NCBI RefSeq assembly: GCF_000014265.1
Contig: NC_008312.1
Location: 1,260,001 to 1,292,000, forward strand
DNA from: Trichodesmium erythraeum IMS101
GTDB lineage: Bacteria > Cyanobacteriota > Cyanobacteriia > Cyanobacteriales > Microcoleaceae
DNA length: 32,000 nt
Reading direction: 5' to 3'
The first letter of the stretch is position 1; the number at the start of each line of letters is the position of its first letter. The notes beneath the pieces were generated by a model. It did no database searches. It had not been told where the DNA came from and was given only the letters and a program-made list of their open reading frames with translations. Below, piece after piece: positions 5,393 through 31,256 of the stretch. The translations under genes were made by a program, and so were the position numbers.

Positions 5393-5407
5393 GCAGGAGC
5401 AACACGG

Positions 5408-5600
5408 AAGTCAAAAGTCAAAATTTAGGAAGTCAAAATTTAGAAAGTTAAAAGTCAAAAGTTAGATTTTAATGGTTTAAAACTTGGGAAGTTAAAAGTC
5501 AAAAGTTAGACTTTAATGGTTCAAAATTTTGACGGTTGATCAAAAAAAACTTTTCACTTTCAACTTTTATTTCCCTTCTGCCTTCTGCCTTTCTTTCTCC
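5408..5600. repeat. Composite short-repeat block in the hypE-hypA spacer
   Basis: Iterated aagtcaaaa / agttaaaagtcaaaagtt motifs. Two ~44-bp direct copies: g(a/g)aagttaaaagtcaaaagttaga(t/c)tttaatggtt(t/c)aaaa at ~5443-5486 and ~5487-5530. An inverted partner, aacttttcactttcaactttt, lies at ~5549-5569. ccttctg occurs twice at ~5574-5590. Confidence 0.6.
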
Positions 5601-6309: not shown

Positions 6310-7314
6310 TCAACTTTGTCTAACATATTTTCTAATATCAATTGCCACTGCACTGACAATAATTAATCCCTTAACAATAAATTGTAAATAAGGACTTAAC
6401 TCAATAAATACCAGACCATAATTAATAATTTGGAAAATCAAGACTCCTGTGACAACTCCTGATACAGTACCAATACCTCCGGAAGTAGAAACTCCTCCCA
6501 CTACACAAGCAGCAATGGCATCTAACTCATACATATTACCAGTATTATTAGTGGCACTGCCAACACGACCTGCTTCTAATATTCCAGCAAATCCGTATAA
6601 TAAACCCGCTAAAGTATAAACAATTAATAAATACTTAATAACACTAACACCAGAGACAGTTGCTGCTTCAATATTTCCTCCTATAGCATACATATTTCTG
6701 CCCAAAATAGTTTGATTCCATAAAACCCAAATAACTCCAATTACTATGACTGCATAGATAATTAAATATGGAATTTCAAAGGAACCTAAAATCAAATCAC
6801 CTTGAACAAAAGTAGTAAAATTTTCAGCTAATCCACCAACTGGTTGTGCTCCTAAAGGAGGGCGATCAAAATAAATAGAATTTAATCCATAAATTATAAT
6901 CATTGTTCCTAATGTAGCAATAAAAGGAGGTACTTTAAACATACCTACAACCACTCCATTAATGAACCCAAAAAAAGCACAAATTATCAGAGTAAATAAC
7001 ATCGGAATTATTAAAGGTAATTCCATTAAATTTGGATACATACGGTAAGGATAATCTGCTCCTTGTAATAATGAAGCTGATAATACTGCTCCTACTCCTA
7101 CTATACGTCCTGCAGATAAATCAGTACCTTGAGTAATTAAAACTCCCCCAACACCCAAAGCAATAATAATTCGAGTCGAAGCTTGAGTTAAAATCAGACG
7201 AAAATTATTAACTGTTAAAAAATCAGGTGAAATTATAGTTATAACAATTAACAATAGGATTAACACTAAGTAGATAGCATTATTAAGAGCAAAGTTTATA
7301 ATTTGTTTAATCAT
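6310..7314 (-). CDS. mglC: Galactose/methyl-galactoside ABC transporter permease (MglC-type)
   Basis: 334 aa, multi-pass membrane protein. Long blocks match E. coli MglC as I recall it: TQGTDLSAGR, PPFIATLGTMII.YG, GSATNN.G.MYELDAIAACVVGGVS.SGG.GTV.GVVTGV.IF..INYGL. Confidence 0.85.
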   Translation of the reverse strand: MIKQIINFALNNAIYLVLILLLIVITIISPDFLTVNNFRLILTQASTRIIIALGVGGVLITQGTDLSAGRIVGVGAVLSASLLQGADYPYRMYPNLMELPLIIPMLFTLIICAFFGFINGVVVGMFKVPPFIATLGTMIIIYGLNSIYFDRPPLGAQPVGGLAENFTTFVQGDLILGSFEIPYLIIYAVIVIGVIWVLWNQTILGRNMYAIGGNIEAATVSGVSVIKYLLIVYTLAGLLYGFAGILEAGRVGSATNNTGNMYELDAIAACVVGGVSTSGGIGTVSGVVTGVLIFQIINYGLVFIELSPYLQFIVKGLIIVSAVAIDIRKYVRQS

Positions 7315-7523
7315 TGGTAAATTTAAATATAATTGTTTTTTTGTTCACACCAAAATCTCTCTCAATTTAAATAAGTAAGTCAAAAAAAAATATATTTTTA
7401 AAAGTTTAAAAATTATTTATGAATACTAATTATAATAGTAAGCACTAGTATATTTAGAAAATGAATAAACTTAGAATTACTAAAACTCTTATAGTATGAT
7501 ATTTTCTAATACCAGGACAAGCA

Positions 7524-9053
7524 TTATAAATACAACCCAGATAAACCCATAATTTCCTCTTGAATCCTATTGTTTTGAGTCATTTTTTTTGATTCAACTA
7601 TACCTGCAACTTTACCGTTACTCATAACTAAAATTCTATCAGTAACTCCCAATAATTCTGACATTTCTGAAGATACCATAATAATTCCCATACCTTCATT
7701 AGCTAAATCATTTATTAACTTATATATTTCATATTTAGCCCCCACATCTATCCCTCTTGTTGGCTCATCCAACATCAAAATTTTTGGTTTAGTTAATAAC
7801 CAACGTCCAATTATTACCTTTTGTTGATTTCCACCAGATAATTTCCCAATTAAAGTTTTTTGTGAAGGTGTTTTTACTCCCATTGAATCAATTATTTCTT
7901 GAGTGTGTTGTCGAATTTTTTTTTCGGATAGTAAACCCCAGCTATTCACATAATAATTAATATTAGCAATTGTGGCATTAAAACTTACTGATAAACTATC
8001 AAAAATACCCGTACTTCTTCTCTCTTCAGTTACTAAAGCAAATCCCTGAGAAATCACTTTATTAATTCTAGAATTATCAATTTTTTTACCCTCTAAAAGT
8101 ATTTCTCCTGAACTGACTTTTCTGATGCCAAATATTCCCTCAAGAATATCTGTTCTTTTTGCTCCTACAAGTCCAGCTATTCCTAAAATTTCTCCTGCTT
8201 TTAATTCAAAGTTAATATCCTTAATCGAAGGTTGAGTATAAGCAGTTAAATTTTTAACTTCTAAAATAACCTTACCTAGTTGACAAGTTTTATGAGGAAA
8301 TAAACTAGATAATTTTCTATTAACCATCATCTCTATAATTTCAGATTTGGTTAAATCTTGAGATGGTTTAGTTGCTATACAAAAACCATCTCTCATAATG
8401 GTTATTTCATCAGAAATATTTAAAACTTCCTCAATTTTATGAGAGATATAAATAACTCCTACATTTTGATTTTTTAATTGATTAATAATTGAAAATAAAT
8501 GCTCTACTTCTGTTACCGTTAAAGATGAAGTTGGTTCATCCATGACAATAATTTTAGAATTAGAAGAAACTGCTTTAGCAATTTCTACCAATTGCATTTC
8601 TGATATACTCAAAGAACTAACATTTCGTTTAGGGTTAAGTTCTATACTAAGTTTTTCAAACAGATTTTTAGTATCTTTAAAACACTTTATTGTATCAATA
8701 AATATTCCCTTTATAGGATATCTTCCTAGCCAAATATTATCCATAATATTCATTTGTCTGACTTGATTAAGTTCTTGGTGAACCATTGAAACACCATACC
8801 TTAATGCTTGTTGAGGGCTGAAAATTTTTACCCTTTTTCCAGACAAATAAATTTCACCTGCATCCAACTTATAAATACCAAACAAACATTTCATTAAAGT
8901 TGATTTTCCAGCACCATTCTCACCAACTAATGAATGTACTGTACCAGGTCTCACTTTTAATATTGCTCCAGATAATGCTTGTACTCCAGAAAAAGTTTTA
9001 GAGATATTAGTCATTTCTAAAGCATACTTCGTCTTGAATTCTTCTCCAACCAT
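7524..9053 (-). CDS. mglA: Galactose/methyl-galactoside ABC transporter ATP-binding protein (duplicated ATPase, MglA-type)
   Basis: The ORF is open to a TTG at 9071. The ATG at 9053 gives [21 protein letters not shown], colinear with the MglA N-terminus. Two ABC cassettes: GENGAGKST / LSISEMQ / [10 protein letters not shown] and [16 protein letters not shown] / [15 protein letters not shown]. Confidence 0.9.
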
Positions 9054-9286
9054 ATTATTCTTTTTTCTCAAGTATGTTCCACTAATAATATTTTTAGTAA
9101 TCCCACTATTCGCCCATTAACTAAATTTAAGGAATTCAAGAATAGTGAGATAAGTTTATATAAATATTTATCAGAAATTGAAGTAAATTTATTCTGATAA
9201 TTAAAACAAACAAGCAGTTAAACTTGTGTGAATTTTTTAGTAAAGTAACTACTGATAATAATCCACACTTTACCTAGAACAGAAGT

Positions 9287-10315
9287 CTAATTATAAGCAT
9301 CTTCTGCTACACCCAAATTATCTTTTGTTATAGAAACATAAGGAACTAAGACTGCTTTATTAACATCTAATTTCCATTGAGTATCTGCCAAAATATCTTT
9401 ACCTAAAGCAGCATTAAAAGCCAAATCAAATGTAGCCTTACCCTGATTCTTAGCATCATTTAAAACAGTACCAACAATTTTTCCTTCTCGAATTTTTATT
9501 AACACTTCAGGTATAGCATCAACTCCCACTATTGGAACTAATTTGTTATCTTTAAAATATCCAGCTTTTTCTAAAGATGATAAAGCTCCTAAAGCCATAG
9601 CATCATTATTAGCAATTACTAACTCAATTTTATTACCATACTTAGATATCCAGACATCCATTTTATTAGCAGCTTTTGTAGCATCCCACATAGCTGTATC
9701 AATTGCTAATTTTTCTACCTCAATACCTGCCTTTTTAACCTCATCAATAACATATTTAGTTCGTGCTTCGGCATCTGGATGTCCTGGTTCACCTTTTAAT
9801 AAAACATATTGAATTTTTCCATCTTGATTCAGATCCCATTGTTCTTTATTTTTATTCCATAAATTAGTAATTATTGTACCTTGTATAATTCCAGATTCTT
9901 GAGAATTAGTACCTACATACCAACTCTTTTCATAACTATTTAAAAGTTCTAATTCTGGCTCTTTATTGAAGAAAATCACAGGTAAATTTGCTTTTTTAGC
10001 TTTTGCTATTACTGTTATAGCTGACTTAGGATCTACTAAGTTAATTGCTAAAGCTTTGACTCCCTTAGCAATCATGGTATCAATTTGCTCAAGTTGCTTG
10101 GCTTGATTATTTTGTGAATCATTAATAAATAATCTTGCTTTAGCATTAGCACTTGATTCAATATAACGACGTACATAAGACATAAAGTTATCATCATATT
10201 TGTAAATAGTGACACCTATCTTAATTAAATTTTCCTTGTTATTACTAGTATTTGCTGTACAACCTATAAATAACAGAGATGCTAAAATTGAAGCTATGAA
10301 TAAACTCTTTTTCAT
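9287..10315 (-). CDS. mglB: Galactose/glucose-binding periplasmic protein, lipoprotein form (MglB-type)
   Basis: The ORF is open to 10363. The internal start at 10315 gives [19 protein letters not shown], a signal peptide with a lipobox Cys. Near-identical blocks to E. coli MglB as recalled: [73 protein letters not shown]. Gene order B-A-C matches the enteric operon. Confidence 0.85.
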
Positions 10316-11499
10316 CACAAAAATTCCTAAATTATAATTACTATTATTATCAATTTTTTTCATGGCTTTAAATTTTAAATTATAAAATTGACACTATTTA
10401 TTACTCCTATATATGTAGTAATATTTATAAGTAAATATTTTTTAATCTAAAAAAAAACTACAAAAATTACTGCTTTTATAACACTACTATCAAACTTTCA
10501 TAAATTCTAATTTGAGATAGTTTAGTTTTGAGCAATATCAGGAAATTGTCAGTAAAAAGCTATGCTTTTATTAATTGATCTGAATAATTAATTTTAGATA
10601 AAATAGTATAACTTTTCCTGTTTATACTTGTCAAACTTTTCTGAAGGAAAGATCAAGGTAAAATCGGAAATTAAATCCAAATTATCTGATAAAAATGCCT
10701 GAAAATTAGTTAACATCATAAATAAAAAAAATATAGTGGTTGTTGATAGTCGATATGGATGTACATCCTTAGTCAAAAAAACTGTAGATATTCCTCGCAA
10801 TTAGTTAATAGGCTATATCCTTAGATGTTTTTACGATAAGCCGATAGGTCATAATAGCTGTGGTTGTTCTAGATGATATGGGAAAAATTTTTAACTGAAT
10901 GCTCAAGAAACATCGGTAAAGAGCAAAAGTTATAAAAAAATACAAAAATAGCAATTAGCAACTGAATTGACATCAAAAAAAAATTTACATATCTTAATAT
11001 TCTATTTTTTTAATCTTTCCCTAGATTATATTTGCAACTATTTAGTCTACACTACTAATAATAAATAATAAAACAAATATTTACTATACAGTAAAACATT
11101 TATACTATCGCTAAACTATAAATAATCTGAAAAAAGATAGTATTTTCTATCAAATATTTTTGGAACTTTTCAAAATTTTCTTTTAACTAATTAACCAACC
11201 TAATACCGATTCTCAAAGTTATGAATTTACCTCTAATGAAGTCAAACAATTATCTTTTCGTTTAGACAGTTAATTTTTTCCAACTGAAAATAAATCTAAT
11301 CAAATTTTTTACCTTTTAAAGCTTAATTTCAAGCAGATTTAAGCAGATGATAATTTCTATTATCGCTTATTTACCCAATTATTTCTCTTTTTACGACAAT
11401 ATTAACCCTCTAATCCTTAACACATAATAGTTATTGTCCCAGTCGTAATATAAAAAGGAAAAAAATTAGCGCTTTGGCAACATTTTAGTCTCAAATAAA

Positions 11500-11552: not shown

Positions 11553-12392
11553 ATGTGTGTAACTTGTGGTTGTTCCGGTAATAATGAAGCTACTATTACT
11601 AACTCTCAAACAGGAGAAAAAATAGCAATAAGTAACCATCATCCTCATACCCATACTCTCCCAGATGGTACTGTCATTACTCATACTCATTCTGATAATT
11701 ATACTCCCAAAAATCATAATCATAAAACGGCAGAAGATCATGCCAAAATCCACAAAAATACTATTAGTTTAGAAAAAGAAATTTTACAGAAAAATGACCT
11801 GATAGCTGCCCAAAATAGAGGTTGGTTTAAAGGCCGAAATATTTTGGCTTTAAATTTAGTTAGTTCTCCTGGTTCTGGCAAAACAACTTTATTATCTCGC
11901 ACAATTAATGATTTAAAATCTGATTTGACTTTTAGTGTGATTGAGGGTGACCAAGAAACTATTAATGATGCGGAAAAAATTCGCAAAACTGGTTGTAAAG
12001 TTGTGCAAATTAATACTGGTAAAGGCTGTCACTTGGAAGCTGCAATGGTAGAAAAAGGTTATACAGAATTAAATCCTCCTTTAAATTCAGTTTTGATGAT
12101 TGAAAATGTGGGGAATTTAGTTTGCCCTGCTTTATTTGATTTAGGAGAAAGTTGTAAGGTGGCAATTCTATCAGTTACTGAAGGAGAAGATAAACCGATT
12201 AAATATCCCTATATGTTTCGAGAAAGTCAGGTAATGATTCTGACAAAAATTGATTTATTGCCTTATTTACAGTTTGATTTAAACCGCTGTGTTGAATATG
12301 CAAAGCAGGTAAATCCTCAGATTCGTATTTTTCAGGTTTCTGCTTTTACCGGAGAGGGTTTGAATAAGTGGTATGATTGGTTAAAAAGTTAA
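11553..12392 (+). CDS. hypB: Hydrogenase nickel-incorporation GTPase HypB (with His-rich N-terminal region)
   Basis: MCVTCGCSG is the N-terminal CxxCGC Ni site. A His-rich stretch follows (HHPHTHTLPDGTVITHTHSD...HNHK..DHAKIH). G-domain motifs: SPGSGKTTLL, ENVGNLVCPA, LTKIDL. GGAG lies 9 nt upstream of the ATG. Confidence 0.9.
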   Translation: MCVTCGCSGNNEATITNSQTGEKIAISNHHPHTHTLPDGTVITHTHSDNYTPKNHNHKTAEDHAKIHKNTISLEKEILQKNDLIAAQNRGWFKGRNILALNLVSSPGSGKTTLLSRTINDLKSDLTFSVIEGDQETINDAEKIRKTGCKVVQINTGKGCHLEAAMVEKGYTELNPPLNSVLMIENVGNLVCPALFDLGESCKVAILSVTEGEDKPIKYPYMFRESQVMILTKIDLLPYLQFDLNRCVEYAKQVNPQIRIFQVSAFTGEGLNKWYDWLKS

Positions 12393-12829: not shown

Positions 12830-15655
12830 GCTGAATAATTCAAAAATAGAATGTTGGGTTTCCATGGCTCAACTCAACCTACGTTTACTATATTTACTAC
12901 TTTTTTACTGGGGTTAATATCAAGCATCCATCTGGAGAGGAATGAGGTTAGACTACCTTTTCAGAGTTTATCTAAAATCTAATAACTATAACGTTGGAGT
13001 TTTTGAGTTAGTCAATTCTTTTCCGGAGGCGTAGAATATGATGGATGTCTCAGTTTGGTTTTCTTAGGGTTACTGAAAAATTTGGGGTTTCCATGGCTCA
13101 AACCCACCTAGGTTTTTACTGGGGTTAATATCAAGCATCCATCTAGAGAGGAATGAGGTTAGGCTACCTTTTCAAAGTTTATCTAAAATCTAATAACTAT
13201 AACGTTGGAGTTTTTGAGTTAGTCAATTCTTTTCCGGAGGCGTAGAATATGATGGATGTCTCAGTTTGGTTTTCTTAGGGTTGCTGAAAAATTTGGGGTT
13301 TCCATGGCTCAACTCAACCTACGTTTACTATATTTACTACTTTTTTACTGGGGTTAATATCAAGCATCCATCTAGAGAGGAATGAGGTTAGGCTACCTTT
13401 TCAAAGTTTATCTAAAATCTAATAACTATAACGTTGGAGTTTTTGAGTTAGTCAATTCTTTTCCGGAGGCGTAGAATATGATGGATGTCTCAGTTTGGTT
13501 TTCTTGGGGTTACTGAAAAATTAGGGGTTTCCATGGCTCAAACCCACCTAGGTTTTTACTGGGGTTAATATCAAGCATCCATCTGGAGAGGAATGAGGTT
13601 AGGCTACTTTTTCAGAGTTTATCTAAAATCTAATAACTATAACGTTGGAGTTTTTGAGTTAGTCAATTCTTTTCCGGAAGCGTAGAACATGATGGATGTC
13701 TCAGTTTGGTTTTCTTAGGGTTGCTGAAAAATTTGGGGTTTCCATGGCTCAAACCCACCTAGGTTTTTACTGGGGTTAATATCAAGCATCCATCTAGAGA
13801 GGAATGAGGTTAGGCTACCTTTTCAAAGTTTATCTAAAATCTAATAACTATAACGTTGGAGTTTTTGAGTTAGTCAATTCTTTTCCGGAGGCGTAGAATA
13901 TGATGGATGTCTCAGTTTGGTTTTCTTAGGGTTGCTGAAAAATTTGGGGTTTCCATGGCTCAACTCAACCTACGTTTACTATATTTACTACTTTTTTACT
14001 GGGGTTAATATCAAGCATCCATCTAGAGAGGAATGAGGTTAGGCTACCTTTTCAAAGTTTATCTAAAATCTAATAACTATAACGTTGGAGTTTTTGAGTT
14101 AGTCAATTCTTTTCCGGAGGCGTAGAACATGATGGATGTCTCAGTTTGGTTTTCTTAGGGTTGCTGAAAAATTTGGGGTTTCCATGGCTCAAACCCACCT
14201 AGGTTTTTACTGGGGTTAATATCAAGCATCCATCTAGAGAGGAATGAGGTTAGGCTACCTTTTCAAAGTTTATCTAAAATCTAATAACTATAACGTTGGA
14301 GTTTTTGAGTTAGTCAATTCTTTTCCGGAGGCGTAGAATATGATGGATGTCTCAGTTTGGTTTTCTTAGGGTTGCTGAAAAATTTGGGGTTTCCATGGCT
14401 CAACTCAACCTACGTTTACTATATTTACTACTTTTTTACTGGGGTTAATATCAAGCATCCATCTAGAGAGGAATGAGGTTAGGCTACCTTTTCAAAGTTT
14501 ATCTAAAATCTAATAACTATAACGTTGGAGTTTTTGAGTTAGTCAATTCTTTTCCGGAGGCGTAGAATATGATGGATGTCTCAGTTTGGTTTTCTTGGGG
14601 TTACTGAAAAATTAGGGGTTTCCATGGCTCAAACCCACCTAGGTTTTTACTGGGGTTAATATCAAGCATCCATCTAGAGAGGAATGAGGTTAGGCTACCT
14701 TTTCAAAGTTTATCTAAAATCTAATAACTATAACGTTGGAGTTTTTGAGTTAGTCAATTCTTTTCCGGAGGCGTAGAATATGATGGATGTCTCAGTTTGG
14801 TTTTCTTAGGGTTGCTGAAAAATTTGGGGTTTCCATGGCTCAACTCAACCTACGTTTACTATATTTACTACTTTTTTACTGGGGTTAATATCAAGCATCC
14901 ATCTAGAGAGGAATGAGGTTAGGCTACCTTTTCAAAGTTTATCTAAAATCTAATAACTATAACGTTGGAGTTTTTGAGTTAGTCAATTCTTTTCCGGAGG
15001 CGTAGAATATGATGGATGTCTCAGTTTGGTTTTCTTGGGGTTACTGAAAAATTAGGGGTTTCCATGGCTCAAACCCACCTAGGTTTTTACTGGGGTTAAT
15101 ATCAAGCATCCATCTGGAGAGGAATGAGGTTAGGCTACTTTTTCAAAGTTTATCTAAAATCTAATAACTATAACGTTGGAGTTTTTGAGTTAGTCAATTC
15201 TTTTCCGGAGGCGTAGAATATGATGGATGTCTCAGTTTGGTTTTCTTGGGGTTACTGAAAAATTAGGGGTTTCCATGGCTCAAACCCACCTAGGTTTTTA
15301 CTGGGGTTAATATCAAGCATCCATCTGGAGAGGAATGAGGTTAGGCTACTTTTTCAGAGTTTATCTAAAATCTAATAACTATAACGTTGGAGTTTTTGAG
15401 TTAGTCAATTCTTTTCCGGAGGCGTAGAATATCATGGATGTCTCAGTTTGGTTTTCTTAGGGTTGCTGAAAAATTTGGGGTTTCCATGGCTCAACTCAAC
15501 CTACGTTTACTCTATTTACTACTTTTTTACTGGGGTTAATATCAAGCATCCATCTGGAGAGGAATGAGGTTAGGCTACCTTTTCAAAGTTTATCTAAAAT
15601 CTAATAACTATAACGTTGGAGTTTTTGAATTGGTATAGCTGAAAAATGTTGGGTG
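12830..15655. repeat. Tandem array A: 13 copies (12 full plus 1 internally deleted) of a 211-bp (S) or 229-bp (L) non-coding unit
   Basis: The landmark TCCATGGCTC occurs at 12861, 13090, 13301, 13530, 13741, 13952, 14181, 14392, 14621, 14832, 15061, 15272 and 15483. Every spacing is exactly 229 or 211 bp. Copies are near-identical by eye. The ORF track shows no ORF of 60 aa or more on either strand. Confidence 0.95.
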
Positions 15656-15918
15656 AAGTCAGATATTAAATTGAGAACTAATTGTTCCTCTAAATTCCTC
15701 TCCCATTCCCTATCTGCTAAGCCAAGTTATTCTTCTCAATGTCTCATATTGGTTCATTCATGAAATAATTACCCTTTAATATCCGCCAACACACCGTTAA
15801 ATTAAAGAGTATAGGTATTGAAAATTGTTGCTCTTAAAATTAAGTAATTTTTCTATTGCTAAACTAGGGTATAAAATATTATTATAGTATAAGAATATAC
15901 TTTTTTGAGGTAAACATT

Positions 15919-17823
15919 ATGGATAATTTTCCGCAAATCGAACCCCCTGCTGAAGGGGAAGCAGTCCAACTTATTGGCCACAACAAGAAAGAGAGTTTTA
16001 TAAATGGATCCGACGATGCTGAGGTTCTGAAGGGTAAAAAGCGTGATGATATTCTCGCTGGCTCCGGTGGAGAAGACTGGCTCTATGGAAAACAAGGTCA
16101 AGACATCCTGCTCGGCGACAACGTACCTGACGAGACTGACTTTGACGCAGATGGCAAGGTAACGGTCAATCATACCTCAATGAATGACTACCTTTTCGGG
16201 AATATTGGTGAGGATACTCTCATTGACCAATTCGGGAGTGACGGTTTAATAGGTGGTCAAGGGAATGATTTGATTATTAGTATGAGTGACTCCAATATTC
16301 CCCAGGAAAATCAGACTATACCAGCCAACGTAGATGATGGTGATGACCTTGCTCGGCTTAATTTTTCTGATACATATATTAATCCAGACAACCTTAGCGC
16401 TAATGACACATTGAAAGGTGGAAAGGAGGCAGATACATTTTCCTTCCAATTATTGATAAATGCTTCAAAAGAAATTGTCGAGAAGCACACTAATGACCAG
16501 GGAGTTACCAACTGGGGAATGAATGGTGTCGCCGGAGAAAATGATAACTACCATGATCATTGGGTGGAAGGCATTGGGCATGATAAAATTATTGACTTTA
16601 ATGCCAAGGAAGGAGACTCAATTAAAGTTTTCGGCCATACAGTACAAAAGCGACTCCTTGAGAATGATGAACAATCTAAAATCGCTGTTATTGGTCTCTA
16701 CAGTGATCAAGGTAATGATGGACAGCGAGGTGGGGGTGCTCATGACCTAGATGTTCTCGGTAAAATTGAAGTGCATTATAAAGGCAAGTTTGACTTTGAT
16801 TCAGATGTTACTGTAGAAAATGAAGATTACGGAGCTTATGGCTTGGACAGTAATGCAATGATTGAGGAATATGATATTCCCAATAAACTGGATGAAGCTA
16901 ATACATCTGACTTTGTCGGAACTAACGGAGATGACGAAATTGAAGGTAATCTTGGCAAAAATAAGATACAAGGTCTTCAAGGTGATGATCATCTTATTGG
17001 CCAAGCGGGGAAAGACAAGTTAGAAGGTTCAGAAGGTGATGATCATCTTATTGGTGATTACATACCTACAGAAGCTGATTACGATGCTGAAGGAGTACTC
17101 GACCTTCCCGAAGATGTAGTCTACGATGACAAACTTTTTGGCGATACAGAATCTGATACTCTTGCCGATCAGTATGGGGATGATAAACTCACAGGAGGTG
17201 ATGGTAATGATAGGTTGATCAGTATTAGTGATAGTAGTATTCCTCGTGAGAACGCTAATATTCCAGCTGGTGTAGATGATGGTGACGACCTTAAGAAGCT
17301 TGATTTTTCCAATGAACTTATCAATCCATATAATACCGCCAGTAAGGATATTTTGACAGGAGGTTCCGGTGCTGATACGTTTGAATGGAATCTTCTTATC
17401 AATGCCTCAAAAGACATTGTCGAGAAGCACACTGATGACGACGAAATCATCAACTGGGGAATGAATGGTGTGGCCGGAGAAAATGATAACTACCATGATC
17501 ATTGGGTTGATGGTATTGGAAAGGATTTAATTATGGATTTCAGTGGACAGGGTGGTGAGGATGATAAGATTATCGTCCGAGGACATACGGTTAAAGTCAA
17601 GCTCTTGAGTGAAACGTCAGATAAGGCAGAGTTAGGTATCTACAGCGACCAAGGTAATGACGGAGAACGAGGTAATGGTGCCCATGATTTTGATGTTCTA
17701 GGAAAAATTGTAGTCAAACATGATGGTAACTTTAACTTTGATAATGATGTACAAGTCGTAGGGGTTGATTATGGTGCCTATGGGAATGGTGCAGAATTAT
17801 ATCAAGTGTTTGGACTTGAATAA
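15919..17823 (+). CDS. Internally duplicated RTX-like (hemolysin-type) calcium-binding repeat protein, function unknown
   Basis: 634 aa, acidic and G/D/N-rich, with no signal peptide. GAGG lies 9 nt upstream of the ATG. RTX-like nonapeptide runs: AGSGGEDWLYGKQGQDILLGD and GNLGKNKIQGLQGDDHLIGQAGKDKLEGSEGDDHLIGD. The two ~314-aa halves are offset by 942 nt. Confidence 0.8.
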   Translation: MDNFPQIEPPAEGEAVQLIGHNKKESFINGSDDAEVLKGKKRDDILAGSGGEDWLYGKQGQDILLGDNVPDETDFDADGKVTVNHTSMNDYLFGNIGEDTLIDQFGSDGLIGGQGNDLIISMSDSNIPQENQTIPANVDDGDDLARLNFSDTYINPDNLSANDTLKGGKEADTFSFQLLINASKEIVEKHTNDQGVTNWGMNGVAGENDNYHDHWVEGIGHDKIIDFNAKEGDSIKVFGHTVQKRLLENDEQSKIAVIGLYSDQGNDGQRGGGAHDLDVLGKIEVHYKGKFDFDSDVTVENEDYGAYGLDSNAMIEEYDIPNKLDEANTSDFVGTNGDDEIEGNLGKNKIQGLQGDDHLIGQAGKDKLEGSEGDDHLIGDYIPTEADYDAEGVLDLPEDVVYDDKLFGDTESDTLADQYGDDKLTGGDGNDRLISISDSSIPRENANIPAGVDDGDDLKKLDFSNELINPYNTASKDILTGGSGADTFEWNLLINASKDIVEKHTDDDEIINWGMNGVAGENDNYHDHWVDGIGKDLIMDFSGQGGEDDKIIVRGHTVKVKLLSETSDKAELGIYSDQGNDGERGNGAHDFDVLGKIVVKHDGNFNFDNDVQVVGVDYGAYGNGAELYQVFGLE

Positions 17824-17984
17824 CTGCCGGGTCGGGTTACATAGACCTGAACTTTCCCTTTGACAAAAAACTATAATATGTGCTATAAAATAGATTTATT
17901 TGGTAAAAAAATATATTTTCCACCTATGACTCTATTTTAAGCTTGATGTCTTAATAGAGAGCTTTTCTCTATGTATGTGGGAAA

Positions 17985-18850
17985 TTTCTCAGGTAGGAGC
18001 GATCGCTACTTTTTCAGAGTTTATCTAAAATCTCATAACTATAACGTTAGAGTTTTTGAGTCAGTTAATTCTGGTCGGGAAGCGTAGAATATGATGAATG
18101 TCTCAATTTGTTTTTCTTGGGGTGGCTGAAAAATGCTTGGTTTCTATGCCTCAAGCCCATCTACATTTATTATGTTTACTACTTTTTGACTGGGGTTAAT
18201 ATCAAGTATCTATCTGGAGAGGAATGAGCGATCGCTACTTTTTCAGAGTTTATCTAAAATCTCATAACTATAACGTTAGAGTTTTTGAGTCAGTCAATTC
18301 TGGTCGGGAGGCGTAGAATATGATGAATGTCTCAATTTGGTTTTCTTGGGGTGGCTGAAAAATGTTGGGTTTCTATGCCTCAAGCCCATCTACGTTTATT
18401 ATGTTTACTACTTTTTGACTGGGGTTAATATCAAGTATCTATCTGGAGAGGAATGAGGTTAGGCTACTTTTTGACTGGGGTTAATATCAAGTATTTATCT
18501 GGAGAGGAATGAGGTTAGGCTGCTTTTTCAGAGTTTATCTAAAATCTCATAACTATAACGTTAGAGTTTTTGAGTCAGTCAATTCTGGTCGGGAGGCGTA
18601 GAATATGATGGATGTCTCAATTTGGTTTTCTTGGGGTGGCTGAAAAATGTTGGGTTTCTATGCCTCAAGCCCATCTACATTTATTATGTTTACTACTTTT
18701 TGACTGGGGTTAATATCAAGTATCTATCTGGAGAGGAATGAGCGATCGCTACTTTTTCAAAGTTTATCTAAAATCTCATAACTATAACGTTAGAGTTTTT
18801 GAGTCAGTTAATTCTGGTCGGGAGGTGTAGAATATGATAGATGTCTCAAA
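17985..18850. repeat. Tandem array B: about 3.7 diverged copies (229-bp type, plus a 56-bp partial re-duplication) of the array A unit, in the same orientation
   Basis: Landmarks GCTACT/GCTGCT occur at 18005, 18234, 18519 and 18748. The units are colinear with array-A L units and roughly 80-90% identical by eye. Three copies carry HIP1 (gcgatcgc) where array A has ggttaggc. Confidence 0.9.
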
Positions 18851-29780: not shown

Positions 29781-31256
29781 TCAATTCAAAGCTCCCATAA
29801 AAAACGGACGAAATAACTCACAAGAGAGACTTGCAAGATTACCTTTGAGGCGAACTAATCCCATCTTTTGCAACTGATAACCAAGAGATAGTTGGATTTT
29901 TATCGGTTTGGGGTTGTTGACAATTTTAGTAAAAATCGGCAATAATTCGTGGTAGTGTTGCAGGTTCCACCATTGTTGTTGTAAATGTTCTGCATAAAGA
30001 ACAGTTAGACTATCAGAATTTTCTAAAATTGCTTCTAGGGTTATAGTCTGTTGGTATAGAGAATAAAATGCTAACTGCAAACGATAGGGATGTCCGCCAA
30101 GAATAGTAATTAATTGCTGGATTTGTGATTCGGTTATTTCTTGTTGGTAGCGCTGTGCTAGCTCCTGCACTTGAGCTGGGGTAAATTCAGGTAAATTGAT
30201 GAGTGTTCCAGTATTCAATAGGGAGGGATTAATTGAGGAAGGCATCATAATTTCTGTAGAATAAATTGTCAGCAGTCGTAGTTTTTGCCAAGGATGACTT
30301 TCTGTTTCCCCTGCTTGAGTTCTCCCAGACCAAGCTCGCAGAAGTTGGAGAAATTCACAAGCAATATCGGGGTAAGTAAAAAGCTGATTGAGTTCATCAA
30401 TAGCTATTACTAGAGGGCGATCGCTTTGGGTTAAGATGATATCATTTAAATAGTCAGTAGCGATTGATTTGTTACCCAAAGAATTCTGCCAAAAAGCGGT
30501 TATCTGCTCATGGTAAATTGCTTGATTTGAGTGGGCTTGAGACAATTTTAACTCCTGAGTAACTCTAGCACAGAACCATTGCAGGAAGCTTTCTAGGTTC
30601 TGTAAAATTTTGAGGTCAACGAGTTGCAAATTCAGATAAAAGGTTTGATACCCCAGGGATTTAGCGAAAGCAATGATGCGGCTCATTAGGGAGGTTTTAC
30701 CCATTTGCTTGGGGGCGCAGATGTTCAAAAGTGTACCTGGTTGCTGGATGCTTTTGTTACAAAGGGATTGGATTATAGGACGGTCAATGTAAAAGACAGA
30801 ATCAATAGGCATCTGTCCTCCCGGTGTTTTTGGCAGATGAGATTGTAGCTTTTGTTGTGGTTTAACCATGTTTTTGCCTTGGGGGCTATTGTTCTGATAG
30901 GGCAGCAGATGCAAAGAAGAGCTGTAGGTTAGTTTTGGGAAGAAGCAGGTTTTGGCTAGTGGTATGGGGTTAATCTCCTCTAAATTCTCTTGATTGGACT
31001 GTAGGTAAACATAGTCTTCTCTTGTTAAGGTTAGATTAAAAGCCTGGAAGCAGCACTTCAAGGTACGTTTATCAACTCCTGATGAGCAGGTAAAGACTTT
31101 GCTGATGGTATTGGGGGTTAAGCCGATTTTTTCACTAAGAGATTCAAGAGTATATCGCTGATTTTGCTGAACTTCTAAGTCTGATTTAGTCTTAATAAGT
31201 TTTCTACAACCTTGAGAACTAAGGATGACACCTCTTCGACGTATAGATTTTGTCAT
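29781..31256 (-). CDS. AAA_35-like (STAND-type) ATPase with N-terminal helix-turn-helix
   Basis: N-terminal HTH-like region (YTLESLSEKIGLTPNTISKVF), Walker A APKQMGKTSL, Walker B LVIAIDELN. This architecture is common in filamentous cyanobacteria. Confidence 0.7.
   Translation of the reverse strand: MTKSIRRRGVILSSQGCRKLIKTKSDLEVQQNQRYTLESLSEKIGLTPNTISKVFTCSSGVDKRTLKCCFQAFNLTLTREDYVYLQSNQENLEEINPIPLAKTCFFPKLTYSSSLHLLPYQNNSPQGKNMVKPQQKLQSHLPKTPGGQMPIDSVFYIDRPIIQSLCNKSIQQPGTLLNICAPKQMGKTSLMSRIIAFAKSLGYQTFYLNLQLVDLKILQNLESFLQWFCARVTQELKLSQAHSNQAIYHEQITAFWQNSLGNKSIATDYLNDIILTQSDRPLVIAIDELNQLFTYPDIACEFLQLLRAWSGRTQAGETESHPWQKLRLLTIYSTEIMMPSSINPSLLNTGTLINLPEFTPAQVQELAQRYQQEITESQIQQLITILGGHPYRLQLAFYSLYQQTITLEAILENSDSLTVLYAEHLQQQWWNLQHYHELLPIFTKIVNNPKPIKIQLSLGYQLQKMGLVRLKGNLASLSCELFRPFFMGALN

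Follow-up and report, generated by a model that had tools for sequence, protein, structure and literature searches.

Tandem non-coding arrays with a conserved promoter/operator-like core downstream of hypB in Trichodesmium erythraeum IMS101

Downstream of the hydrogenase-maturation gene hypB, the filamentous cyanobacterium Trichodesmium erythraeum IMS101 carries a tandem array of 211/229-bp non-coding units (array 1), followed beyond the next gene by a shorter array of related units (array 2). Both lie in a stretch of 32,000 nucleotides (contig NC_008312.1, positions 1,260,001 to 1,292,000 of assembly GCF_000014265.1), which is called the window here and supplies all coordinates without a contig name; contigs from other assemblies and metagenomes carry numbers such as L028. 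The arrays differ between strains, their units recombine with one another, and a 64-nucleotide core inside each unit is conserved across genera and recurs in the 5' flank of genes for a family of helix-turn-helix (HTH) proteins. Among the tandem non-coding arrays of filamentous cyanobacteria they belong to a new sequence family, and the cross-genus core with its HTH gene link, as read from sequence, is new and testable. The core is most economically read as a promoter/operator module, and its conservation across genera together with its occurrence at HTH gene 5' flanks is the strongest argument for function. The interpretation offered here, tentatively, is that the array may be a multi-copy non-coding transcription or regulator-binding locus, formed by amplification of such a module and adjusted in copy number through unequal crossing-over.

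Array 1 extends by homology from about 12850 to about 15637 and continues as a short junction piece up to about 15662. The landmark TCCATGGCTC occurs 13 times, at 12861, 13090, 13301, 13530, 13741, 13952, 14181, 14392, 14621, 14832, 15061, 15272 and 15483, with spacings of 229, 211, 229, 211, 211, 229, 211, 229, 211, 229, 211 and 211 bp. The main features of the two arrays are as follows.

12850 to 15662, plus strand (the strand of hypB and of the conserved arm): array 1, consisting of a leading partial unit, 12 full units, a last one with an internal deletion, and the junction piece GCTGAAAAATGTTGGGT followed by GAAGTCAG.
13119 to 13347, plus strand: reference L unit (229 bp), phased from CTGGGGTTAATATCAAG as column 1.
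13348 to 13558, plus strand: reference S unit (211 bp).
13324 to 13341, plus strand: the 18-bp segment found in L units only (TTTACTATATTTACTACT).
12844 to 12864, plus strand: left-flank copy of AAAAAT(AGA)ATGTTGGGT, which pairs with 15641 to 15654 as a direct repeat around array 1.
17991 to 18849, plus strand: array 2, made up of about 3.5 units of type 2 (229 bp) and a 56-bp sub-repeat, starting at column 37 (GAGCGATCGCTAC) and ending after TAGAATATGATAGATGTCTCAA.

The 12 full units of array 1 follow the order L-S-L-S-S-L-S-L-S-L-S-S, fall into seven distinct sequences, and share 94.3-100% pairwise identity (mean 97.3%). Tandem Repeats Finder, a check proposed in the preliminary description of this DNA, recovers the array at 12902-15628 with a period of 211 (12.5 copies, 91% matches) and a second period of 440 (6.2 copies, 95% matches); the latter identifies the L+S dimer as a higher-order repeat. 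The longest open reading frame (ORF) within array 1 encodes 43 amino acids. That description had placed the 13 landmark copies and their spacings exactly where they are found, and its accounts of near-identical copies, of an internally deleted last unit and of non-coding DNA hold as well. It had traced the difference between L and S to one 18-bp indel; the indel is real and is accompanied by four linked substitutions. It had also set the array immediately downstream of hypB, from whose stop codon the array start is separated by about 450 nucleotides, and array 2 was absent from it.

Recombination among the units is directly visible. A four-gamete test on all full units found every one of the four combinations at 41 of the 66 informative site pairs; taken with the differences in the array between strains, the shuffling fits ongoing unequal crossing-over or gene conversion and supports what the preliminary description had suggested from its shuffled junction haplotypes. 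Structurally, array 1 fits the definition of a satellite-type tandem repeat, being arranged head to tail, homogenised, organised in a higher-order repeat and variable in copy number.

The exact count of 13 comes from one finished assembly, which raises the question of whether the locus truly holds one or two copies and was inflated during assembly. Short-read assemblies of the same or sister strains do not span the array, which is interrupted by an N-gap in L001 and L016 and by the end of the contig in L002, and contig L018 runs through the locus without a full unit. Such an artefact is nevertheless very improbable, since seven distinct sequences in an ordered L/S pattern could not be produced by collapse or misjoining, independent assemblies break or gap exactly where a true multi-copy repeat would make them do so, and the Trichodesmium assembly MAG_R01, a metagenome-assembled genome (MAG), contains a second array with 12 contiguous units.

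Each unit is composed of several recognisable elements, given here for a representative copy in array 1.

13152 to 13215, plus strand: core block spanning unit columns 34-97; each of the 17 units has it, and it is the sole part conserved in another genus (L028, about 90%).
13178 to 13191, plus strand: arm TTTATCTAAAATCT with the -10-like TAAAAT, in all 17 units, at 12967, 13178, 13407, 13618, 13829, 14058, 14269, 14498, 14709, 14938, 15149, 15360, 15589, 18020, 18249, 18534 and 18763.
13195 to 13212, no strand assigned: 18-bp near-palindrome AACTATAAC followed by GTTGGAGTT (type 2: GTTAGAGTT), in all 17 units, at 12984, 13195, 13424, 13635, 13846, 14075, 14286, 14515, 14726, 14955, 15166, 15377, 15606, 18037, 18266, 18551 and 18780.
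13220 to 13248, plus strand: sigma-70-like promoter candidate TAGTCA, 17 nucleotides, TAGAAT, in every unit; the more distant lineage has TAGGAT.
13249 to 13278, plus strand: mini-ORF ATGATGGATGTCTCAGTTTGGTTTTCTTAG, 9 codons (12 in the other variant), with GGAGG upstream.
13284 to 13319, no strand assigned: conserved CTGAAAAAT run, then hairpin H1 in its L form; the S form, for example at 13513-13545, reads GGGTTT, 9 nucleotides, AAACCC.

The H1 stem is kept with differing sequences, namely TTGGGTT/AACCCAA in L025 and MAG_R01 and TGGGTT/AGCCCA in type-2 units, and in Trichodesmium-like lineages the TAGAAT region, the hairpin and the A5 run are conserved besides the core.

The mini-ORF could suggest that the locus is an array of micro-peptide genes, each encoding MMDVSVWFS (or MMDVSVWFSWGY) behind its own ribosome-binding site. 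GGAGG does lie 8 nucleotides before the ATG in every array-1 unit, and the start of the ORF is kept across lineages. The coding potential itself is poorly preserved, however: the variants include non-synonymous changes (S/P, D/N, V/I, Y/C/G) and a stop/Trp polymorphism, so that the mini-ORF is probably no peptide gene; moreover, its length varies between 9 and 12 codons, and in one unit the first ATG is replaced by ATC. Additionally, the segment resembles the start of an HTH gene and is more simply explained as a gene remnant, which leaves the micro-peptide explanation highly improbable.

Comparison with other genera isolates the core as the deeply conserved part of the unit. In L028, a contig of a MAG from another genus whose hypB DNA is 84% identical, alignment to the unit is limited to columns 34-97, where identity reaches 90.6% and sub-blocks reach 92-95%. 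Downstream of hypB, this contig contains two 110-nucleotide elements and at least five tandem units of 157 nucleotides, the array region extending over 7128-8180. In L026, one core copy lies 93 nucleotides past hypB, at the contig end. The heart of the core, AACTATAACGTTGGAGTT, also occurs in metagenome contigs as a 96-nucleotide tandem array. A metagenome scan with the 21-mer AACTATAACGTTGGRGTTTTT recovered seven contigs, three of which hold the 96-nucleotide array in 1 to at least 4 copies, depending on the sample; this array is flanked by a gene for a 761-amino-acid P-loop protein and a YdjM-like gene (L035 1-330; L039 1180-1332; L034 780-900). In the remaining four, single copies abut the start of an HTH_17 gene, encoding a protein of about 185 amino acids, or its remnant.

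In two of these four single-copy contigs, L038 and L040, a TnpB-like insertion sequence (IS) with a Cas12f1-like TNB domain has disrupted the HTH gene at its 5' end (L038 4131-5099). The possibility that the core is an end of this TnpB-type element was rejected, since the IS broke an HTH gene and the motif is that gene's 5' flank. The motif is separated from the end of the TnpB-like gene by about 300 nucleotides of structured-looking sequence, which might be an omega-RNA scaffold. The possibility that the core serves a common downstream target gene was likewise rejected, the gene after the motif in L036 and L038 being unrelated to Tery_0803, the gene that follows array 1.

Other searches were less productive. 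An earlier scan of metagenomes with a 33-base pattern and a search of plasmid and phage collections for the array gave no match. Among species-representative genomes, an 18-mer present 17 times in the window gave five chance matches in unrelated bacteria and no Trichodesmium record, and that search is hence uninformative on spread. The same 18-mer occurs many times in other Trichodesmium assemblies; the representative collection is perhaps masked or lacks the region.

The HTH family that shares the palindrome comprises 111 clusters, every one of which comes from Okeania, Hydrocoleum, Trichodesmium, Dapis or another member of the Microcoleaceae, and each genome holds many paralogs; the family's IMS101 member is Tery_0028, whose ortholog in L041 adjoins topA. 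The palindrome abuts the ATG at four of five distinct HTH paralog loci, the fifth having a degenerate copy 10 nucleotides upstream; at one of the four, represented by L058 and L060, it is a perfect palindrome, AACTATAACGTTATAGTT. Upstream of the palindrome, in gene orientation, the arm TTTATCTAAAATCT recurs at the HTH gene of L037 and at the disrupted HTH gene start of L038. The proteins, of about 170-190 amino acids, combine a Xis/MerR-like HTH, a beta-rich domain without structural match and a Lys-rich tail; their genes lie at L036 3224-3802, L037 942-1604, L041 2480-3031 and L058 1480-2061. In a structural model, the 40 residues at the N-terminus can be superposed on winged helices from Xis, RdfS and BldC; a search for similar folds gave no significant match over the full length of the model, whose remainder is unlike any solved structure. 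Within the array unit, ATGGATGTCTCA (unit columns 134-146) shares 10 of 12 positions with ATGAGTGTCTCA, the start of the HTH gene, a resemblance that hints at an origin of the unit from the 5' part of such a gene.

Taken as an amplified regulatory module, the array may operate as follows. A non-coding module bearing a promoter and operator would have been amplified in tandem, each unit carrying the 64-nucleotide block in which an A/T-rich arm with a -10-like TAAAAT precedes the 18-bp near-palindrome AACTATAACGTTGGAGTT. The palindrome would be the operator of the Tery_0028-type HTH family, and each unit could form a separately started small transcription unit yielding a non-coding RNA of about 100-130 nucleotides. 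Unequal crossing-over and gene conversion would shift the copy number and keep the units alike, and the copy number would then set both the RNA dosage and the number of regulator-binding sites. A more specific version, rather unlikely in its full form, holds that the palindrome is the operator of an Xis/BldC-like family of Trichodesmium, Okeania, Hydrocoleum and Dapis and that the arrays are regulator-controlled, copy-variable small RNA (sRNA) genes that also soak up the regulator. In this account, protein binding, transcription, the strand that is read and any link to hydrogenase maturation are inferred.

Several observations weigh against this regulatory interpretation, beginning with the strand cues, which conflict; promoter-like and terminator-like elements occur on both strands. 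The plus strand is indicated by the arm TTTATCTAAAATCT, which is placed upstream of the palindrome and oriented as it is at the HTH loci; by TAGTCA-17-TAGAAT in each unit; by G-U wobbles that keep H1 paired in type-2 and L units on this strand only; and by agreement with the orientation of hypB and Tery_0803. The minus strand is indicated by TATAGT or TACAGT in every core variant, the former lying within the near-palindrome, and by H1, which in this direction is a terminator-like hairpin (6-8-bp stem) directly followed by a conserved U5, on the minus strand only and most clearly in L025, where an 8-bp stem precedes AUUUUU. Array 1, read in this direction, starts with a core and ends with a hairpin and U-run, and therefore consists of complete units. 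RNA structure offers little help: candidate RNAs from the unit fold no better than shuffles on either strand (z = -0.3 to +1.6), and RNAalifold finds scattered pairs only. A candidate long-range helix between columns 17-25 and 133-141, which had seemed to show compensatory changes, was rejected, since a count by independent events instead of by sequences puts supportive and disruptive changes about level on both strands; an 8-9-bp inverted repeat in 211 bp has a chance expectation of about 0.3. The libraries of the published primary transcriptome left out RNAs shorter than 300 nucleotides (PMC4143802). No HTH gene is found near the arrays, units diverge about four times faster than their flanks between close strains, which fits weak constraint outside the core, and Trichodesmium tolerates much repeated non-coding DNA.

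The faster divergence of the units also speaks for a neutral or selfish satellite, in which the decayed 5' part of an HTH gene, comprising its promoter, the palindrome and the first codons, became fused to neighbouring sequence, was amplified by slippage and unequal crossing-over, and persists without function since Trichodesmium purges non-coding DNA poorly. Its units are homogenised and recombining, they lack a thermodynamic structure signal, the piece resembling the HTH start codon region suggests a pseudogene origin, and the genome is 40% non-coding and rich in repeats.

Variation between lineages also accords with such a satellite. Copy number and array layout differ between strains, and L018 possibly represents a zero-unit allele. 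In MAG_R01 (L016), the flanks are 98.2% identical to the window and the units only about 93%, with unit-fixed changes outside the core, a pattern that belongs with core conservation. Its layout comprises at least four units after hypB, an RTX gene, 12 contiguous units (six type-2, then six type-1) and another, partial RTX copy; the 12-unit hybrid array and the RTX copy behind it are noted at 14552-17838 of the contig. Since both a second array and a second RTX copy are present, the module of array plus RTX gene has been duplicated there. In a more distant lineage (L025, L032, L033; hypB DNA 89% identical), array 1 is absent and just a 27-nucleotide junction piece occupies its place; array 2 is there, counting 1.7 to at least 3 units. 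A direct repeat of about 14 bp brackets array 1, and its sequence is single-copy at the site in lineages without array 1; this repeat, together with the lone junction piece, suggests that array 1 arose through recombination at the common GCTGAAAAATGTTGGGT, by which the site received copies of units of array-2 type.

Set against a functionless satellite is the behaviour of the core, which retains 90.6% identity across genera, compared with 84% for hypB and surroundings that are not alignable. Arrays with units of 96, 110, 157 and 211/229 nucleotides all keep it, and two genera retain arrays at the same site downstream of hypB. This persistence suggests either selection on the core or a built-in amplification mechanism, and an inert satellite, somewhat less likely than the regulatory interpretation, is its main and a serious rival.

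If the core matters, it could still do so as DNA without an RNA product of importance, the 17 palindromes forming a sink or nucleoprotein platform for Xis/BldC-like HTH proteins, comparable with operator decoys or with repeat-type centromeres such as sopC of plasmid F. The sopC locus consists of 12 copies of 43 bp with an inverted repeat in each, and Xis and BldC bind arrays of repeated sites cooperatively. The arrays near hypB resemble these systems in placing one short symmetric site in each tandem unit and in having a candidate protein with an Xis/BldC-like winged helix, but their units are five times longer, they are chromosomal and without partition genes nearby, and their palindromes are candidate binding sites. 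Every unit keeps the two-fold symmetric 18-mer, the perfect form abuts an HTH gene start, and a family member with the Xis/BldC-like N-terminal domain exists in IMS101. The core moreover folds weakly as RNA (-0.4 to -4.6 kcal/mol), which favours a DNA-level site; the notion that the core is an intrinsic terminator or a structured RNA was rejected on the same hairpin energies. However, at 211-229 bp the sites are spaced widely by the standard of known centromere or iteron arrays, the 64-nucleotide block with its -10-like hexamers exceeds what a binding site needs, and in Trichodesmium-like lineages conservation extends to the TAGAAT region, the hairpin and the A5 run. A purely DNA-level array is distinctly unlikely.

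An amplified regulatory module has precedents in a second IMS101 locus and in NsiR1. The genome of IMS101 contains about 40% non-coding DNA and is rich in repeats, and a tandem array of seven copies at 103-110 kb, with repeats of 736-973 bp, is the source of its most abundant non-coding RNA (PMC4143802). In view of this, the preliminary description had been too strong in calling both a functional multi-copy locus and a bacterial satellite unusual. The array at 103-110 kb resides in the same genome and is likewise tandem, non-coding and gene-adjacent, each of its repeats having its own transcription start site. By description it differs in locus, unit size and copy number and holds a duplicated gene 3' end, whereas the present array holds a promoter/operator-like module; transcription is demonstrated for the 103-110 kb array only. 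The main text of that study does not mention the array adjacent to hypB (PMC4143802), and no description of it was found in the literature on Tery_0802 to Tery_0804 and on repeats of the Trichodesmium hyp region.

NsiR1 is a heterocyst-specific sRNA of Nostocales, roughly 60 nucleotides long; some 12 tandem copies of it lie upstream of hetF, and a DIF (TCCGGA) promoter belongs to each (Ionescu et al. 2010; PMC9045159, PMC4030482). Its locus and the present array both occur in filamentous, diazotrophic cyanobacteria and consist of about a dozen non-coding units arranged head to tail, with promoter-like elements in each unit and central copies that are identical while those at the edges have diverged. 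TCCGGA itself is present in every array-1 unit, at 13233-13238 in the spacer of the promoter candidate. Homology to this Nostocales sRNA is nonetheless extremely improbable and was rejected because sequence, promoter geometry and context all disagree. When NsiR1.1 and NsiR1.4 (PMC9045159, Tables S3-S5) were aligned by Smith-Waterman to both strands of both arrays, the scores were at chance level, with at best 62 of 500 dinucleotide shuffles reaching the score. The NsiR1 unit is roughly 130 bp as estimated from construct sequences, compared with 211/229 bp here. TCCGGA stands 4 nucleotides upstream of TAGAAT instead of at the -35 position 17 nucleotides before a -10, no minus-strand TAnnnT occurs at 16-18 nucleotides, and the motif is not conserved elsewhere, reading TCGGGA or GTCGGG in array 2, MAG_R01 and L025. 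The NsiR1 RNAs fold at -16 to -18 kcal/mol, whereas the candidate RNAs here do no better than shuffles; a 6-8-bp hairpin with a U5 behind it does exist on the minus strand, but a strong terminator of the NsiR1 type is not apparent. Finally, Trichodesmium lacks heterocysts, and no hetF was found among the scanned window ORFs of at least 80 amino acids.

The remaining classes of repeat differ as well, in agreement with the preliminary description, which had argued against CRISPR, short repeats of the STRR/HIP1 type and IS elements. Like a CRISPR, the array consists of regularly spaced repeats, but unique spacers are absent, the entire period is repeated, and no cas genes occur among the window ORFs scanned. 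[quoted passage not shown] An IS or a miniature inverted-repeat transposable element seems unlikely: neither a transposase nor terminal inverted repeats are present, the 32-kb window holds the unit at no other place, and in related genomes the core at other loci lies within the 5' flank of HTH genes and not as a mobile unit; array 1 is, on the other hand, bracketed by the direct repeat of about 14 bp. The possibility, raised earlier, of an already annotated RNA family finds no support, as no Rfam family matches at gathering score in the whole window; weak RAGATH-27 matches (24 bits where the threshold is 76, E about 6) were dismissed as chance because none occur in the homologous L028 array.

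The genes flanking the arrays encode proteins identical to Tery_0802 (HypB), Tery_0803 (an RTX-type calcium-binding protein) and Tery_0804 (GT2) of IMS101. The first two are located as follows.

11553 to 12392, plus strand: hypB (Tery_0802).
15919 to 17823, plus strand: RTX-type calcium-binding protein gene (Tery_0803), between both arrays.

Past Tery_0803, array 2 shares 85-88% identity with array 1, and its left boundary is the same in L025 and L033. A HIP1 site (GAGCGATCGCTAC) is found in two array-2 units and at the left boundary, in place of the GAGGTTAGGCTAC of array 1, and the 56-bp sub-repeat reflects a direct repeat, CTAC(T)TTTT.A, internal to the unit. Tery_0803 itself contains an internal duplication (16251-16808 and 17203-17750, about 69% DNA identity), seen in comparison with L032. 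The hyp cluster in the window comprises hypF, D, E, A and B and is interrupted between hypA and hypB by mglC/mglA/mglB-like genes, a sugar ATP-binding cassette transporter operon inserted at 6310-10363 on the minus strand; in Okeania and in the L026/L028 lineage, this site holds a pentapeptide-repeat gene or other genes, not mgl. STRR-like heptamer runs occupy intergenic spacers of the cluster at 2948-2999 and 5406-5526 (TGATAAC x 7.4; AAGTCAA x 7.6, with a 22-nucleotide period). Further along, a protein of 491 amino acids at 29781-31256 on the minus strand carries an AAA_35 domain (Pfam E = 4e-113) and is without an NCBIfam name.

A large part of the new nitrogen of tropical oceans comes from Trichodesmium, and for the question of why 40% of its genome is non-coding this locus provides a concrete case that can be tested. 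The array stands next to hypB in at least two genera, and its sole deeply conserved part is a module common to a lineage-specific family of DNA-binding proteins. A regulator-controlled sRNA array at this position, if real, would constitute a new regulatory arrangement beside hydrogenase-maturation genes in marine filamentous diazotrophs. Should the units prove inert, the locus would provide a well-documented case of promoter fragments seeding bacterial satellites; should they be transcribed or bound by a regulator, it would show copy-number-variable repeats as regulatory devices and would give a cis element to an uncharacterised protein family.

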